DNA of 64,000 nt, taken from IMG/VR virus record IMGVR_UViG_3300008255_000098. The stretch is one strand, 5' to 3'. Of this stretch, positions 1,079 to 60,250 are shown one piece after another (position 1 is the stretch's first letter; every line of letters begins with the position of its first letter). Both the position numbers and the translations under genes were made by a program. Source of the DNA: a virus (taxonomy: Duplodnaviria > Caudoviricetes). Below the pieces are notes generated by a model. The model was not told the origin of the DNA. It did no database searches and saw only the letters and a program-made list of their open reading frames with translations.

Positions 1079-1091
1079 CATTCAGCCAAAT

Positions 1092-1184
1092 AAACAAAAA
1101 CGGAATAAGGTGTTGTCACTAGGTGAGTCTAAGACCTTCGAAACTTATCCACGTCAGCTATACTGTCGTGGGAGGGTAATTCAC
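1092..1184 (+). mobile_element. IS200/IS605-type right end / TnpB reRNA-like remnant, no tnpB
   Basis: About 55 nt closely similar to 18485-18540; translates like a TnpB tail (KQKRNKVLSLGESK); ends GGGTAATTCAC. Confidence 0.65.
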
Positions 1185-2452: not shown

Positions 2453-2492
2453 AACGTATACAGAAAAATATACTAAATTAGTTTACAAGGCT

Positions 2493-2547
2493 GGGCGTTA
2501 AAAACCCATCCATTTACTTTTAATCCACAGGACGGAGAATTGTTCAC
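2493..2547 (+). mobile_element. IS200/IS605-like right-end remnant
   Basis: Shares GCGT.AAAAACCCATCCATT with 24533-24556; ends GAATTGTTCAC. Confidence 0.45.
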
Positions 2548-4446: not shown

Positions 4447-4481
4447 ATTAACTACCCACCCGCAACGGGTGGGTAGTTAAT
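4447..4481. repeat. perfect inverted repeat (terminator or IS-end-like hairpin)
   Basis: ATTAACTACCCACCCG-CAA-CGGGTGGGTAGTTAAT. Confidence 0.85.
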
Positions 4482-4652
4482 CTAACGGCATTGCACATTT
4501 AAATTTTGATGGGGGTTAGTTCTAATCCTTCAATTGATTATATAGAATGCGTATATATTGGTGCAAGCTCATCTAAAGCCGCACAGGCTAGAAAATTAGT
4601 GGCAAATGCTGTTTATCCAAAAGGTTATACACCTGGCAATTGAAACTTTTTT

Positions 4653-5127: not shown

Positions 5128-6726
5128 ATGTGCGGAATTTTTGCCTATAAAGGAAGTTTGATTCCCTTTGAGGAACTAGAAAAGCAATTTATGAAATTGC
5201 AACATAGAGGACCAGACAACATGCAAATAGATGTTGACCCTCAAAAAAAAGTATTTCTAGGTTTTCATAGATTATCAATAATGGATTTAACTTCCAAAGG
5301 AAACCAACCATTTGTTGATGGTACAATACGTTTGTTGTGTAACGGAGAAATCTATAACCACGAGAGTCTAAAACAGGAAATAAATTACAAATGTCACTCT
5401 GCAAGTGACTGTGAAATTTTACTACCACTTATTGAAAAATTTGGGTTGCTTGAAACATCTAAAAAATTAGATGCAGAGTTTGCACTAATATGGTATGACC
5501 ATAAAACACAAAAAATGATGGCTGCACGTGACCCAATTGGCATTCGTCCTTTATTTTGGGGGAAGACAACTTCTGGAGAAATAGCCTTTGCGTCCGAGGT
5601 CAAAGCATTAGTGGACATTTGTGAGTTTGTTGAAGCATTTCCACCGGGATTTATTTGGGATGGCAATGAATTAATTGAATTTAGTGATGCAGGCTGTCAG
5701 CCTAAAAAAACTCTTTCCGGGTCAGAGCCCATGAAAGAAAAAGAAGTCCTGTACGGAATATCCTATAAGCTTACAGAGGGTGTTAGAAAGAGGATGGGGG
5801 CTGACGCTCCGATTGGATTTTTGTTGAGCGGAGGTCTTGACAGTAGTCTAATTTGTGCTTTGGCAGCTAAAATCTCTGACAAGCCTATAAAGACGTTTTC
5901 TGTGGGGTCAAATATTGACGCAATTGATAATAAATATGCAGAATTAGTTGCAAAACATATTGGCGCTGAACATACTACAGTATTGTTTACACAACAAGAT
6001 GCAACAAGTAGACTAGATGAGCTAATTCGAAAATTAGAGACGTGGGATATTACGACTATCCGTGCTTCTGTTGGAATGGATTTTGTATGCGAGTGGATAC
6101 ATAAAAATACAAATATTAAAGTGTTGATGACAGGAGAAGTTAGTGATGAATTATTTGGATATAAATATACAGATTATGCCCCGAATGCAACTGAGTTTCA
6201 AAATGAAGCAATTAAAAGAATGAGAGAATTATACATTTATGACGTACTTCGAGCGGACAGGTGTATTTCTGGGCATTCGTTAGAAAGCAGAGTTCCTTTT
6301 GGAGATTTAAATTTTGTAAGCCATGTGATGAATATTCCAGCTGAAATGAAAATGAACACACACGGGCAAGGAAAATATTTATTACGCAAAGCCTTTTCCA
6401 ATATTAACCTTTTGCCGGAAGAAATCCTTTATAGAGAAAAGGCAGCGTTTTCAGATGCAGTTGGACACTCAATTGTTGATGGAATTAAGTTTTATGCTGA
6501 AACCAACATAAGTGATAAAGAGTTATTAGATGCAAAACAAAAGTACAGTTATGGAACTCCTCTGACAAAGGAAGCTTTATTGTATCGTAATATTTTTGAA
6601 AGACACTATCCTGGCAGAAGTGAGTTAATTAAAGATTTTTGGTTACCAAATAAAAATTGGGAAAATTGTAATGTTACTGATCCAAGTGCTCGTGTGTTGC
6701 CTAATTACGGAGACAGCGGCAAATAA
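5128..6726 (+). CDS. asnB: asparagine synthetase B (glutamine-hydrolysing)
   Basis: N-terminal CGI, HRGPD, LGFHRLSI, CNGEIYN, LSGGLDSS, ESRVPF. Confidence 0.97.
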   Translation: MCGIFAYKGSLIPFEELEKQFMKLQHRGPDNMQIDVDPQKKVFLGFHRLSIMDLTSKGNQPFVDGTIRLLCNGEIYNHESLKQEINYKCHSASDCEILLPLIEKFGLLETSKKLDAEFALIWYDHKTQKMMAARDPIGIRPLFWGKTTSGEIAFASEVKALVDICEFVEAFPPGFIWDGNELIEFSDAGCQPKKTLSGSEPMKEKEVLYGISYKLTEGVRKRMGADAPIGFLLSGGLDSSLICALAAKISDKPIKTFSVGSNIDAIDNKYAELVAKHIGAEHTTVLFTQQDATSRLDELIRKLETWDITTIRASVGMDFVCEWIHKNTNIKVLMTGEVSDELFGYKYTDYAPNATEFQNEAIKRMRELYIYDVLRADRCISGHSLESRVPFGDLNFVSHVMNIPAEMKMNTHGQGKYLLRKAFSNINLLPEEILYREKAAFSDAVGHSIVDGIKFYAETNISDKELLDAKQKYSYGTPLTKEALLYRNIFERHYPGRSELIKDFWLPNKNWENCNVTDPSARVLPNYGDSGK

Positions 6727-14975: not shown

Positions 14976-15370
14976 CAATCGAAGTTAAAAAACCAGATCT
15001 TCTTGCGGTAATAAACCGACGTGGCCGTACTTTAGAAGAATTTTTGGCAGAACTTGGGGTTTCTGACAGAAAAACTCTTGATAGAAAAATATCCTTATTA
15101 AAATCTCACTATACTGTAAGTGATACTTTTATAAAACAAGCTTATTTATTAGTTCCGAGTAAGCCAGTTGTAAAAATTGTAGAAGAGCCAGTGAAAATAG
15201 AAGCAGTAGCAGCGGGGGTGACTTCGGGGGTGACTTCGGGGGTGACTTCGGGGGTGACTTCGGGGGTGACTTCGGGGGTAGAAGACAAAAGTCAAAAAAT
15301 CGAAGAACCTACCCGAACAAAAGAACGAAAAGTTGTTAGACAAAAAAAGTCTTCTAACAAAAAACAGTAG
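14972..15370 (+). CDS. hypothetical protein with (GVTS)n repeat
   Basis: ORF with in-frame tandem repeat. Confidence 0.75.
   Translation: MTIEVKKPDLLAVINRRGRTLEEFLAELGVSDRKTLDRKISLLKSHYTVSDTFIKQAYLLVPSKPVVKIVEEPVKIEAVAAGVTSGVTSGVTSGVTSGVTSGVEDKSQKIEEPTRTKERKVVRQKKSSNKKQ
15213..15279 (+). repeat. 12-bp tandem repeat CGGGGGTGACTT x5.6
   Basis: Seen directly; encodes GVTS. Confidence 0.97.
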
Positions 15371-17595: not shown

Positions 17596-18398
17596 GGCCG
17601 GTAGTGTTGTTCAGAGCAGGTTTGGCAGAAGAAAAAGAAATGCAGGTTTGTGCAAAATATTTTCCTGTTATTACCCAACGAAGTCATGTTAAAAAAGATG
17701 ATCTTATTATTCCTAGGTATTCAGCAATACCGTGGTACAAAGAGTTTGAAGAAGACGTAGTATATTCTGGCGGAAGGATAATCAACTCTTTTCGAGAGCA
17801 CAACTATGTAGCGGATTTAAAAAATTGGTATTATCATCTTGAGGAATATACTCCAAGAACTTGGTTTTATTTGGATCAAATACCCCAAGATGGTCCTTTT
17901 GTTTTGAAAGGACAAACAAGCTCTCTCAAACATAGTTGGAACACACACATGTTTGCTAAAAACAAACAAGAAGCAATTCAAGTACATTCTAGATTATGTG
18001 AAGACAGTTATATTGGAACACAATTAATTTACGTGCGTCAGTTTGTTCCTTTGCGACGCCTTGCTGATGGTTTACAAGGTTTGCCTATATCTGAAGAATA
18101 TAGATTTTTTGTACTCAATGGGGAAGTATTAAGTGGAGCATTTTATTGGTCTGAACATAGTGAGTATATTGAAGAACAAGGCATAGATATTAGTTCAAAC
18201 AATGTTCCAAAAGTCTTTTTAGATAAAATTATTTCTATTGTTAAGCCGCATATTCCATTTTTTGTAGTTGACATAGCACGAACTGCAAGCGGGGAGTGGA
18301 TAGTAATAGAATTAAATGACGCTCAAATGAGTGGGTTAAGCGATAATGATTCTGAAATATTGTATTCAAATATGAGAAAAGTGTTGTCTGAAAAGTAA
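17592..18398 (+). CDS. ATP-grasp domain protein (R2K/DUF4343-like)
   Basis: FVLKG..S.KH.W, EYRFFVLNG, FFVVDIA...GEWIVIELND.QMSGL. Confidence 0.85.
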   Translation: MRPVVLFRAGLAEEKEMQVCAKYFPVITQRSHVKKDDLIIPRYSAIPWYKEFEEDVVYSGGRIINSFREHNYVADLKNWYYHLEEYTPRTWFYLDQIPQDGPFVLKGQTSSLKHSWNTHMFAKNKQEAIQVHSRLCEDSYIGTQLIYVRQFVPLRRLADGLQGLPISEEYRFFVLNGEVLSGAFYWSEHSEYIEEQGIDISSNNVPKVFLDKIISIVKPHIPFFVVDIARTASGEWIVIELNDAQMSGLSDNDSEILYSNMRKVLSEK

Positions 18399-18454
18399 AC
18401 TGTTAACCTCCAATATAATTATCTTTGAGCAAAAAACAACAAGATTTAAAAATA

Positions 18455-18563
18455 CTGTCTGGTTCAGGAACTGAGTCGGACACTAAACAAAACGGAATAA
18501 GGCGTTGCCACCATTAGGGCGAGTCTAAGACCTCCGAAACCCGCCCCTGGGCGGGTAGTTCAC
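18455..18563 (+). mobile_element. TnpB C-terminal tail / reRNA-like right end, tnpB absent
   Basis: Translates QDLKILSGSGTESDTKQ as in TnpB tails; hairpin CCCGCCC-CT-GGGCGGG; ends GGGTAGTTCAC. Confidence 0.7.
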
Positions 18564-18601
18564 AGCCACGTAAATATCGTAAACAAATTCTTTGAAATTT
18601 T

Positions 18602-18964
18602 GGGGATAAATTGGATTCGACTTGGGAAACAACGGAACAATAACGTTGTAGTGGATGTTCACGCCCACTTAAATATCGTGAACAAATATAAATGCAGATA
18701 ATGCACCACTTGCTCTTGCTGCCTAAAAAACACTAGAGCCGTTGAACGGATAATGTGCTTCGATTACCGGGAAATGTCATTTTAGAGGCTAGACGAAATT
18801 ACCATTGGATTGCTTTTGAGTAATTAGTTTAAATTAGTAAAAGTAAGAACCCGCTGTAGATGCTTGTAGCTTAGATGCGGAAAATCTAAAATCAGGATAG
18901 ACAACGTAAATGTTTTTCTAGAAGTTCTTGAGGACGAGGGCATCGAAGCCCTCTATCTCCACCA
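18602..18964 (+). ncRNA. ssrA: tmRNA
   Basis: 5' GGGGATAAATTGGATTCGAC; 3' TATCTCCACCA with G3:U70; tag ORF 18694-18726 ADNAPLALAA*; pseudoknot-1 helices GTGG/CCAC and GTTCACG/CGTGAAC. Confidence 0.96.
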
Positions 18965-22025: not shown

Positions 22026-22103
22026 GGGGCCTTGGCAGAAAACTGGAAATGCGGTTGACTTTAAATCGACTTTATGCGGGTTCAATCCCCGCAGGCCCTA
22101 CCA
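22026..22103 (+). tRNA. ochre suppressor tRNA, anticodon TTA (Lys-like body)
   Basis: Full cloverleaf; GTTGA-CTTTAAA-TCGAC; GCGGG-TTCAATC-CCCGC; ACCA end. Confidence 0.9.
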
Positions 22104-24490: not shown

Positions 24491-24532
24491 TTTTTTAAAT
24501 AGAAATATTATACGTCAATTGATATTTATACA

Positions 24533-24576
24533 GGAGCGTAAAAAAACCCATCCATTGGAACGTGGGCGGGATGTAA
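24533..24576 (+). mobile_element. IS200/IS605-like right-end remnant
   Basis: AAACCCATCCATTGGAACGTGGGCGGGATGTAA; shares a core with 2493-2514. Confidence 0.45.
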
Positions 24577-24599
24577 AAACGCTAATCTTGTGATAAAAA

Positions 24600-24830
24600 A
24601 ACGATTTGTACTGGTGTGTTGTGATTTTTAGACTCAATGAAGCAAATTTTTTTGTAAACAAACGGGAATAATAAAAGTTTAGACTATCTAATAGTAGAGT
24701 GAAACAGATATAAATACAGCAAAGAATATTCTTCTTTTGTAAACGAGAAGAAGATGAAGAAGAAGTACAAAGCTGTGAAACCCGAAGCCCAATCCATCAG
24801 CTTTTTTGTTGTCGTGGGTGAGTAGTTCAC
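24600..24830 (+). pseudogene. decayed tnpB 3' end with right end
   Basis: GATATAAATACAGCAAAGAATATTCTT = DINTAKNIL; GAAGCCCAATCCATC...GTGGGTGAGTAGTTCAC. Confidence 0.65.
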
Positions 24831-42602: not shown

Positions 42603-43286
42603 ATGAAATATCTTGTAGACGTCGATTCTAGAATAAACTTGGTAGAACCTGAAAAAAATATTGCAGCACCAGGATTTGTGGTATTTAGTGGTCCTTTTAC
42701 TGAGGACAGTGCAAAAAAGTTTCGTGAAGAGTTAGAGTCTGCTGAAGCGCACAGCAAACGCTCTGGACAAGAGATTATCCCTTTGGTAATTGATTCTTTT
42801 GGTGGTGGTGCATATGCGTTATTGTCAATGGTGGATACAATCAAAAATTGTAGTTTACCTGTCGCTACTATTGTAGAAGGAAAGGCGATGTCTTGTGGAG
42901 CAATATTGTTTTCTTGCGGCGCTGAGGGCCACAGATATGTTGGTCCTAATGCAACGGTTTTGATTCACGATGTAGCTTCTTTCGCCCATGGTAAAGAACC
43001 AGAAATTCGTGCTAGTGCAAATGAAGTAGACCGACTTAATAAAATTGTTTATAAACTTCTTGCGGAAAATTGTGGTCATGAAGAAAACTATTTTTATGAC
43101 ATTGTTGCAAACCATCGAGGTGCCGATATGTTTTTATCACCTGAAGATTGTGTTAAACACAATCTTTCCAATCACATTGGCATACCAGAAATAAATGTAT
43201 CTATCAAAATGGATTATAGTTTTGGTCTTCCAGAACGAGTCGAGGTGAAGAAAAACAAAAACAAGAAAAAAAATAAAAACAAGTAA
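42603..43286 (+). CDS. clpP: ClpP-like protease
   Basis: IDSFGG, GKAMSCGA.LFS.G..G.RY..PNA.VLIH. Confidence 0.85.
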   Translation: MKYLVDVDSRINLVEPEKNIAAPGFVVFSGPFTEDSAKKFREELESAEAHSKRSGQEIIPLVIDSFGGGAYALLSMVDTIKNCSLPVATIVEGKAMSCGAILFSCGAEGHRYVGPNATVLIHDVASFAHGKEPEIRASANEVDRLNKIVYKLLAENCGHEENYFYDIVANHRGADMFLSPEDCVKHNLSNHIGIPEINVSIKMDYSFGLPERVEVKKNKNKKKNKNK

Positions 43287-49281: not shown

Positions 49282-49316
49282 CTGTCTGGTTCAGGAATTG
49301 AGTCGGACATTTTTTT
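49282..49316 (+). terminator. hairpin plus T-run identical (1 mismatch) to reRNA-like segment 18455-18482
   Basis: CTGTCTGGTTCAGGAA(T/C)TGAGTCGGACA followed by T7. Confidence 0.6.
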
Positions 49317-60111: not shown

Positions 60112-60250
60112 GTGAACTATCACAGTGGCTAAAGATATCGTGGCTTCCAAAGTTTAGGATGACCGGCTCCCTTCAGCCAATTTACTTTTTGCATTACTTT
60201 GAAAGACTGTTCAAATTCTGTCAGGGAAGTCATTACTCCAGGCACTTTTA
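60112..60250 (-). mobile_element. IS200/IS605-type right-end remnant
   Basis: Minus strand GAAGCCACGATATCTTTAGCCACTGTGATAGTTCAC. Confidence 0.55.

Follow-up and report, generated by a model that had tools for sequence, protein, structure and literature searches.

The insertion sequence ISGst2 of Geobacillus stearothermophilus has TTTAT as its target-adjacent motif (TAM) and TTCAC as the transposon-encoded motif (TEM) at its right boundary, and gene-less palindrome-associated transposable elements (PATEs) keep omegaRNAs that would need TnpB in trans (Meers et al., 10.1101/2023.03.14.532601). For the TnpB of ISDra2, the guide consists of about 16 nt of the flank past the right end, the target is the TAM followed by that flank, i.e., the empty site, and the cut zone lies 15-21 bp from the TAM (Karvelis et al., PMC8612924). 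TldRs are TnpB-like nuclease-dead repressors, and those of phages silence the fliC gene of the host while supplying their own (10.1101/2023.11.30.569447; 10.1101/2025.07.22.666180). Here we describe the remains of a related element in a 64,000-nt stretch of a Caudoviricetes genome (IMG/VR record IMGVR_UViG_3300008255_000098; the whole of this stretch is called the window below). The relic, at 18432-18563, is a fragment of a known kind, namely the remnant of an ISGst2-like IS200/IS605 element or PATE. It lies just upstream of the transfer-messenger RNA (tmRNA) gene of the phage, and the 25 nt in its guide position match pseudoknot 1 of that tmRNA. With modest confidence, we read it as the fossil of an insertion into a tmRNA allele of the phage lineage, now located within the tmRNA leader.

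The likeness to ISGst2 and to PATEs extends to subterminal hairpins at both ends, a left motif TTTAT (TTTAC once), a right TTCAC, gene-less mini-elements with an omegaRNA, and a guide that is whatever DNA follows the right end. The phage copies differ in that they reside in a huge groundwater phage and ISGst2 in a bacterium, and in that the relic lost its left end; their sequence could not be shown to resemble that of any characterised element, and no cognate tnpA or tnpB was found. As in ISDra2 homing, the predicted source allele, TTTAC followed by the guide, would be exactly TAM plus flank; unlike in that system, the relic has no nuclease gene, and its look-alike in the resident tmRNA lacks the TAM and has three mismatches in the 16-nt guide. 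The relic shares with TldRs the idea of a phage-borne, TnpB-derived guide directed against a gene of which the phage carries a mismatched copy. A TldR gene, however, adjoins its guide, and that guide matches a host promoter, neither of which applies here. Cycles of homing endonucleases and introns yield resistant target alleles, and tmRNA genes are insertion sites for mobile DNA. The resemblance to these cycles lies in a conserved RNA gene as landing site and in a resident allele altered at the recognition site, with function kept by a compensatory change; the difference is that recognition here would be RNA-guided and that the element stands beside the gene, not inside it. The locus comprises the following features, all on the plus strand:

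18432-18563: 5'-truncated, gene-less IS200/IS605 (ISGst2-like) right end corresponding to the omegaRNA scaffold region, without left end or tnpB (homology to the mini-element L019; covariance model).
18455-18482: first hairpin, within decayed tnpB-tail coding that reads LSGSGTES (fold, translation).
18540-18555: subterminal right-end hairpin (fold; one G-C to A-U compensatory change relative to L019).
18559-18563: TTCAC, putative TEM at the right boundary (same end in the other copies; identical to the published ISGst2 TEM).
18564-18588: 25-nt flank in guide position, putative fossil of an older or other tmRNA pseudoknot-1 allele (21/25 match to 18663-18687).
18589-18601: native leader of 13 nt directly 5' of the tmRNA (TCTTTGA at the same position in the closest relative, L001).
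18602-18964: phage tmRNA gene with the tag ADNAPLALAA (Rfam RF00023, 106.4 bits, E 1e-40, full length).
18658-18687: TTCAC plus the guide-like pseudoknot-1 stretch, a would-be target that is predicted to be immune now (sequence, Rfam structure, 25-mer scan).

The element right end reads ...GGGTAGTTCAC, with its last base at 18563, and 18564-18588 then read AGCCACGTAAATATCGTAAACAAAT. As expected of an ISGst2-type right end, the hairpin at 18540-18555 is followed by TAGTTCAC. Over 126 nt the relic is 89.7% identical to a complete 200-nt mini-element with a left-end hairpin (L019 1584-1783), and a covariance model of the element right end (R1) scores 95 bits on it; no Rfam family matches the scaffold. 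The relic aligns with L019 from about 18432 onwards and lacks the hairpin of the left end as well as the promoter-like part. The family possesses a left-end hairpin abutting the TAM; in 18432-18563 the entire left end is absent, which makes this copy a fragment of an element. Only a 20-amino acid (aa) tail remnant stands for tnpB or tnpA, with no tnpB open reading frame (ORF) beside the relic. Within the window, a TnpB or TldR domain is absent from the ORFs that were scanned (21 of the 23 that are at least 200 aa long).

Homologous copies of the relic, whose flanks are mutually unrelated, all end on the right in a hairpin followed by (A/G)TTCAC, with end positions at 1184, 2547, 18563, 24830 and 60112 (minus strand) and at L019 1783. 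Apart from the relic, the window holds four of them:

1091-1184, plus strand: homologous right-end copy ending GGGTAATTCAC (86.5 bits with R1).
2487-2547, plus strand: 61-nt mini-element with TTTAC, left-end hairpin and terminal TTCAC (direct reading of the sequence).
24530-24830, plus strand: decayed element with TTTAT, left-end hairpin, putative tnpB remnant (DINTAKNIL) and right end ...GAGTAGTTCAC (alignment, translation).
60112-60200, minus strand: distant right-end copy ending GATAGTTCAC, directly upstream of a gene start (alignment).

Three left ends are readable (2482-2486, 24525-24529 and L019 1579-1583): the motif is TTTAC for the copy at 2487-2547 and TTTAT for the copy at 24530-24830 and for L019, and the CCCATCC hairpin starts 16-18 nt later. 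Among the three close copies (the relic, 1091-1184 and L019), each substitution preserves the predicted pairing; all 20 predicted pairs are kept in at least two of the three sequences, and only one pair has changed on both sides. At the place of the relic's hairpin, the copy at 1091-1184 has another, longer terminal hairpin. Coding traces are sparse. At 24.7 kb a decayed CxxCG-like stretch precedes DINTAKNIL and, together with LSGSGTES, fits a TnpB tail; Pfam returned nothing for the best tnpB remnant, the read-through of 24596-24739. By its architecture and ends, the relic belongs to an ISGst2-like repeat family of the IS200/IS605 TnpB type.

Outside the window, a pattern search of metagenomes returned 41 loci; genuine copies are confined to L019, L028 and L029, three contigs with one and the same mini-element. 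No relatives that would define the empty site of the L019 mini-element were found. Relatives of the element were matched neither among INPHARED phages nor by two IMG/VR patterns, and plasmids yielded nothing above noise with either the DNA or the tail peptide as query. Contigs from four aquifer runs showed the element to be repetitive and to interrupt the assembly, and contained neither a variant tmRNA allele nor an empty site.

Four minor observations concern this family. Two mini-elements are followed, directly past TTCAC, by DNA similar to the beginning of their own left end (L019 1584-1596 and 1784-1796, 12/13; window 2487-2506 and 2548-2562), and such flanks may mark tandem insertion at a retained TAM. 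On the minus strand, 4447-4512 holds a weak right-end-like copy, with a CCCACCC/GGGTGGG hairpin followed by TAGTTAAT (15.5 bits, E 0.27 with the covariance model). The first element hairpin occurs alone (91% identical) at 49282-49309, between tRNA-Ala and tRNA-Gly and followed by seven T; it looks like an intrinsic terminator. Finally, an apparent kinship between the element body at 18484-18507 (AAACAAAACGGAATAAGGCGTTG) and the 5' part of the tmRNA at 18626-18648 (AAACAACGGAACAATAACGTTG) was rejected as probably due to chance (shuffle P about 0.07).

The relic 25-mer and the resident pseudoknot-1 stretch (18663-18687, GCCCACTTAAATATCGTGAACAAAT) agree at 21 of 25 positions without gaps, the mismatches falling at guide positions 1, 2, 7 and 18. 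GTTCAC precedes both copies, which extends the repeat to 27/31. The match lies 100 nt downstream on the same strand, and the intact tmRNA 38 nt past the element end. On both strands of the window, this is the best non-self match of the 25-mer (the next best reaches 18/25), and the score of its local alignment against the tmRNA was attained by none of 2000 shuffles. The flanks of four other element copies gave background values only (16-19/25). Three of the four mismatches fall within the first 7 of the 25 positions, a seed clustering that is marginal (probability of at least 3 of 4, 0.053). No further tmRNA remnant occurs in the window, upstream or downstream of the intact gene. A cassette-insertion model was discarded since no old tmRNA remainder was found downstream of that gene. 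Nor did we accept that the copy ending at 1184 shares the flank of the relic: the common AGCCAC has P of about 0.05 before correction, and the flank of that copy is unlike tmRNA.

In the resident pseudoknot-1 stem, GTTCACG pairs with CGTGAAC, position 3 of the pentamer TTCAC pairing with guide position 18. The 3' stem strand in the relic is CGTAAAC, the required partner of which is GTTTACG; the lost strand would have carried that partner, and hence TTTAC immediately 5' of the relic sequence. The source allele is predicted to have read TTTAC directly 5' of the flank, which is the exact form of a TnpA insertion site and of a TnpB target. This prediction gains strength because TTTAC is independently seen as a TAM of the family. 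Up to this point, the original prediction for the locus has largely been upheld. It had placed the element end at 18563, followed by a flank matching the tmRNA at 21/25 with three of four mismatches in the first 7; it had taken the stretch for a TnpB-type IS200/IS605 right end, which the repeat family with its hairpin and TTCAC ends, unrelated flanks and TTTAT/TTTAC left ends bears out; and it had remarked that no tnpB ORF is adjacent (the upstream neighbour is an R2K ATP-grasp gene ending at 18398) and that only a guide-length piece of the second tmRNA allele is left. Its source allele of TTTAC plus guide follows from the pseudoknot stem and fits the family TAM, and the resident tmRNA would indeed be immune, as it has TTCAC in place of the TAM and differs from the guide at positions 1, 2 and 7.

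The tmRNA gene itself is genuine. Its full-length score far exceeds the gathering score of RF00023 (47 bits), the tag frame is present, the tag ADNAPLALAA is common to this gene and to the tmRNA of the closest relative, and the acceptor stem (GGGGAUA/UAUCUCC) has the G3-U pair. ARAGORN gives no tmRNA call for 18602-18964 and does call the tmRNAs of the relatives. The T-arm (18925-18964), GAGGG-CAUCGAAG-CCCUC, is atypical, with a loop of 8 nt that lacks the usual UUC; the T-loops of four relatives have 7 nt and read UUCGA or UUCAA. CCA is encoded in the window tmRNA and not in those of the relatives.

Relatives give some indication of the direction of change. The order ATP-grasp gene, then tmRNA, is kept in four of them (contigs L001, L005, L007 and L008), and their tmRNAs were aligned with the relic and the resident gene using MAFFT. 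In the closest, L001, the ATP-grasp protein is 69% identical, there is no element, and a plain TTTACA-17-TATACT promoter-like stretch is found. Guide position 1 is A in the relic and three relatives and G in L007 and the resident gene. Guide position 18 is A in the relic and L001, the partner strand of the latter being TTTA. At position 7, the relic has G, and L001 and the resident gene have T; by eye, against the register of MAFFT, the G agrees with CGTAAA in L005 and L008, and the bacterial tmRNA consensus in Rfam also has CGUAAA. As an indication only, this distribution suggests that the relic keeps older states and that most differences are derived in the functional gene. The derived set looks to include a T-to-C change at the TAM position, neutralised by A-to-G in the partner strand. 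The letters ATATCGT, specific to this lineage, are common to the relic and the resident tmRNA, and they identify a tmRNA of the lineage, as opposed to a host ssrA, as the source of the relic.

In three related huge phages, L005 (4800-4981), L007 (4810-5083) and L008 (4815-5019), a conserved structured leader of 180-270 nt lies between the ATP-grasp gene and the tmRNA, with a common TGAAAACTGAATAGGAAA motif and a long-range GTGYCG...CGRCAC stem. These leaders were considered as members of the same element family and rejected, as the covariance model finds no element and no Rfam family matches. In another relative, L009, a HEARO RNA (the omegaRNA of IscB) at 5963-6224 follows the ATP-grasp gene and scores 87 bits, the gathering score being 83. 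Elements of the obligate mobile element-guided activity (OMEGA) type thus turn up more than once at the ATP-grasp locus of this clade. TnpB-like ORFs of about 490 aa occur in three of seven related huge-phage contigs (L018/L065, ORF 454-1881; L064; L066); they match the Cas12f1-like_TNB/TnpB zinc ribbon with 54-58 bits and have a conserved C-terminal tail, and an upstream motif is common to two of them. As the cognate nuclease of the relic they were rejected, being of a different family with 3' flanks unlike the TTCAC element family.

A present-day target was sought with exact patterns, which alleles with one or two changes would escape. The guide 19-mer has two matches in 185,579 species genomes, both by chance and in coding regions, and occurs in no tmRNA gene among these genomes. 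In IMG/VR, a 23-nt pattern (guide positions 3-25) has no match, and a TAM plus seed pattern (TTTAC followed by positions 2-13) has 31 loci, none of them tmRNA and 30 of them belonging to one unrelated phage gene family. The more far-reaching part of the original prediction fares less well here. It had proposed a domesticated system against the ssrA of a host or competitor phage. An attack on host ssrA is not supported, given the lack of TnpB/TldR in the 21 scanned ORFs, the truncated and promoterless state of the copy, the lack of any ssrA with the guide among the exact matches, and the fact that the relic is nearest to the tmRNA of its own phage lineage, not to bacterial ones. Of the searches it had suggested, that for the guide gave no tmRNA in the species genomes or IMG/VR with exact patterns, and that for a tnpB or TldR gene gave none in the 21 scanned window ORFs.

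According to the reading that we favour, an ISGst2-like element would have inserted 3' of TTTAC in pseudoknot 1 of a phage-lineage tmRNA allele, the TTTAC being supplied by the 5' strand of the pseudoknot stem, and the 25 nt after the TEM would be the remainder of the DNA that housed the element. Later rearrangements would have deleted tnpB along with the left end and whatever else remained of that tmRNA copy. Possible routes are a tandem duplication followed by the loss of one element copy and by deletions, recombination with an intact, resistant allele, or a break near the TnpB cut zone joined to another genome copy. With TTCAC, the compensating A-to-G and the changes at positions 1, 2 and 7, the resident gene would now offer neither a TnpA site nor a TnpB target; it is predicted not to be a target because it has no TAM and three mismatches within the 16-nt guide. 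The relic is probably transcribed solely in the leader of the tmRNA precursor, which RNase P would then cut at 18602, since no sigma-70-like promoter or terminator was detected between the ATP-grasp gene and the tmRNA (18300-18602 for the promoter). As a guide it is most likely inert today, since a nuclease gene in cis and a promoter for the relic alone are both lacking.

Several points weigh against this reconstruction. The path from an element within the tmRNA gene to a relic with 25 nt upstream of it needs several unobserved steps, and neither the 5' half of that tmRNA nor the left end survives in the window. The resident tmRNA shows the element's own end motif, GTTCAC, which under an insertion model is a coincidence or an excision footprint; indeed, GTTCAC before both copies could be a coincidence, the footprint of a TAM-TEM deletion or the microhomology of a duplication. 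The polarity of the changes rests on four sites, distant outgroups and a small sample, and position 7 disagrees with those sites that place the relic alongside the resident gene. The link to TnpB is one of architecture, short remnants (DINTAKNIL and LSGSGTES) and the published TAM and TEM, with no profile match, and INPHARED phages, plasmids, the IMG/VR patterns and the metagenome pattern yielded no intact tnpB to which this right end belongs. The search covered about half of the genome, so that inertness is at most likely.

The most serious competitor, which we nevertheless regard as unlikely, is that the element already stood upstream of the gene and that a template switch or illegitimate recombination at the shared GTTCAC copied 25 nt, the two copies diverging later. 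Such a duplication needs fewer steps than a route through insertion in the tmRNA and accounts readily for the identical hexamer before both copies, the 27/31 repeat and the distance of 100 nt on the same strand; moreover, the TTTAC within the promoter-like stretch of the L001 tmRNA shows that a suitable insertion site can exist upstream of the gene. The direction of change argues otherwise, as it is the functional gene, not the copy, that seems to have changed at three or more of the four differing sites. The source would also have had a C·A mismatch in its stem when copied, it would be a coincidence that the relic strand predicts the family TAM TTTAC, and no other element copy in the window has such a flank duplication. 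That an arbitrary flank merely resembles tmRNA by chance, both stretches being A+T-rich, is practically negligible: the 21/25 match, against 18/25 for the next best, and the outcome of the shuffles refute it. A further proposal, which we find very improbable, is that the relic was retained because it helps to express the tmRNA, be it by folding into a structured 5' leader, by marking a processing site or by acting as a weak promoter, and whether or not it ever works as a guide. The L001-type promoter is gone, 18300-18602 shows no sigma-70-like substitute, and three more distant relatives have their structured leaders before the tmRNA; yet the element model does not detect those leaders, L001 does without a leader element, and there is no evidence of selection on the relic beyond the four sites.

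Two other proposals grant the relic a present function. In the one, which appears improbable, it is a working orphan guide: a TnpB- or TldR-like protein from elsewhere, of phage or host origin, would load the omegaRNA and cut or repress TTTAC followed by AGCCACGTAAATATCG, most plausibly in the tmRNA of sibling or competitor phages (homing or exclusion) and less so in host ssrA, with the phage's own gene immune. The scaffold, 90% identical to a complete mini-element and with pairing kept through all substitutions among three copies, would suit this role, and target escape would be expected to leave just the pattern seen, with older states in the relic and changes at the TAM and positions 1, 2 and 7 in the functional gene. 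The use of PATE omegaRNAs in trans is an accepted idea, three of the seven related huge-phage contigs have the TnpB-like ORFs of about 490 aa, and phage TldRs are known to shut off a host gene of which the phage brings its own version. Those TnpB-like genes, however, have unrelated 3' ends, the scanned window ORFs contain no TnpB domain, and the copy is without its left part and promoter-like stretch. Exact patterns found neither an ssrA with the guide among the 185,579 species genomes nor an allele that matches in IMG/VR. Whereas TldRs act on promoters, the look-alike site is internal to an RNA gene, and the seed clustering has a P of only 0.05. The other proposal, quite improbable as well, extends this to all gene-less omegaRNA copies as a distributed guide set for a TnpB encoded elsewhere, of which the copy ending at 18563 would cut the TTTAC + AGCCACGTAAATATCG of sibling tmRNAs, the resident gene having escaped via its TAM change. 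A target in a sibling phage, and with it ordinary selfish homing, is conceivable.

Under the favoured reading of a fossil insertion, the relic would date and locate a past IS200/IS605 insertion in a phage tmRNA gene and preserve the pre-insertion allele. Read as a pair, the relic and the resident gene would then document how the gene for a structured RNA, with its fold kept, has altered its TAM and its guide-proximal positions. They would record in nature the stay of a TnpB-type element in the tmRNA gene of a phage and, possibly, an escape from targeting in which a second substitution compensates for the lost TAM. The locus also shows that huge phages have been colonised by ISGst2-like elements, a type described in Geobacillus, and that these have decayed there. 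Should these aquifers also contain sibling phages in which the older allele persists or the element is still lodged in the gene, they would provide a natural example of RNA-guided homing and target escape in huge phages; if instead a distributed guide set were at work, RNA-guided homing or superinfection exclusion would be aimed at phage tmRNA.

The window is part of a huge phage, because of its gene content, of relatives on contigs of 100-460 kb and of its occurrence in groundwater and aquifer runs. Proteins around the relic have relatives solely on IMG/VR contigs of that size, and the relic stretch is present exclusively in DNA runs, all of groundwater and aquifer metagenomes. Besides the ATP-grasp gene, the other neighbour of the relic is a VanW-like gene. 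The window contains two tRNA arrays with 25 tRNA genes (ARAGORN) and codes for two class II aminoacyl-tRNA synthetases, an asparagine synthase, an NAD kinase, an NAPRTase, RNA ligases, ClpP, a sigma factor and DNA methylases. The ClpP protease gene (42603-43286) is in the same window as the tmRNA, and the phage may provide tagging and part of the degradation side of trans-translation. At 22026-22103, a tRNA with the anticodon UUA reads UAA (ARAGORN 'tRNA-Stop'; Rfam tRNA, 52.6 bits), in a genome the conserved genes of which are open under code 11. At 15201-15279, an ORF contains about 5.5 tandem copies of the 12-nt unit CGGGGGTGACTT.

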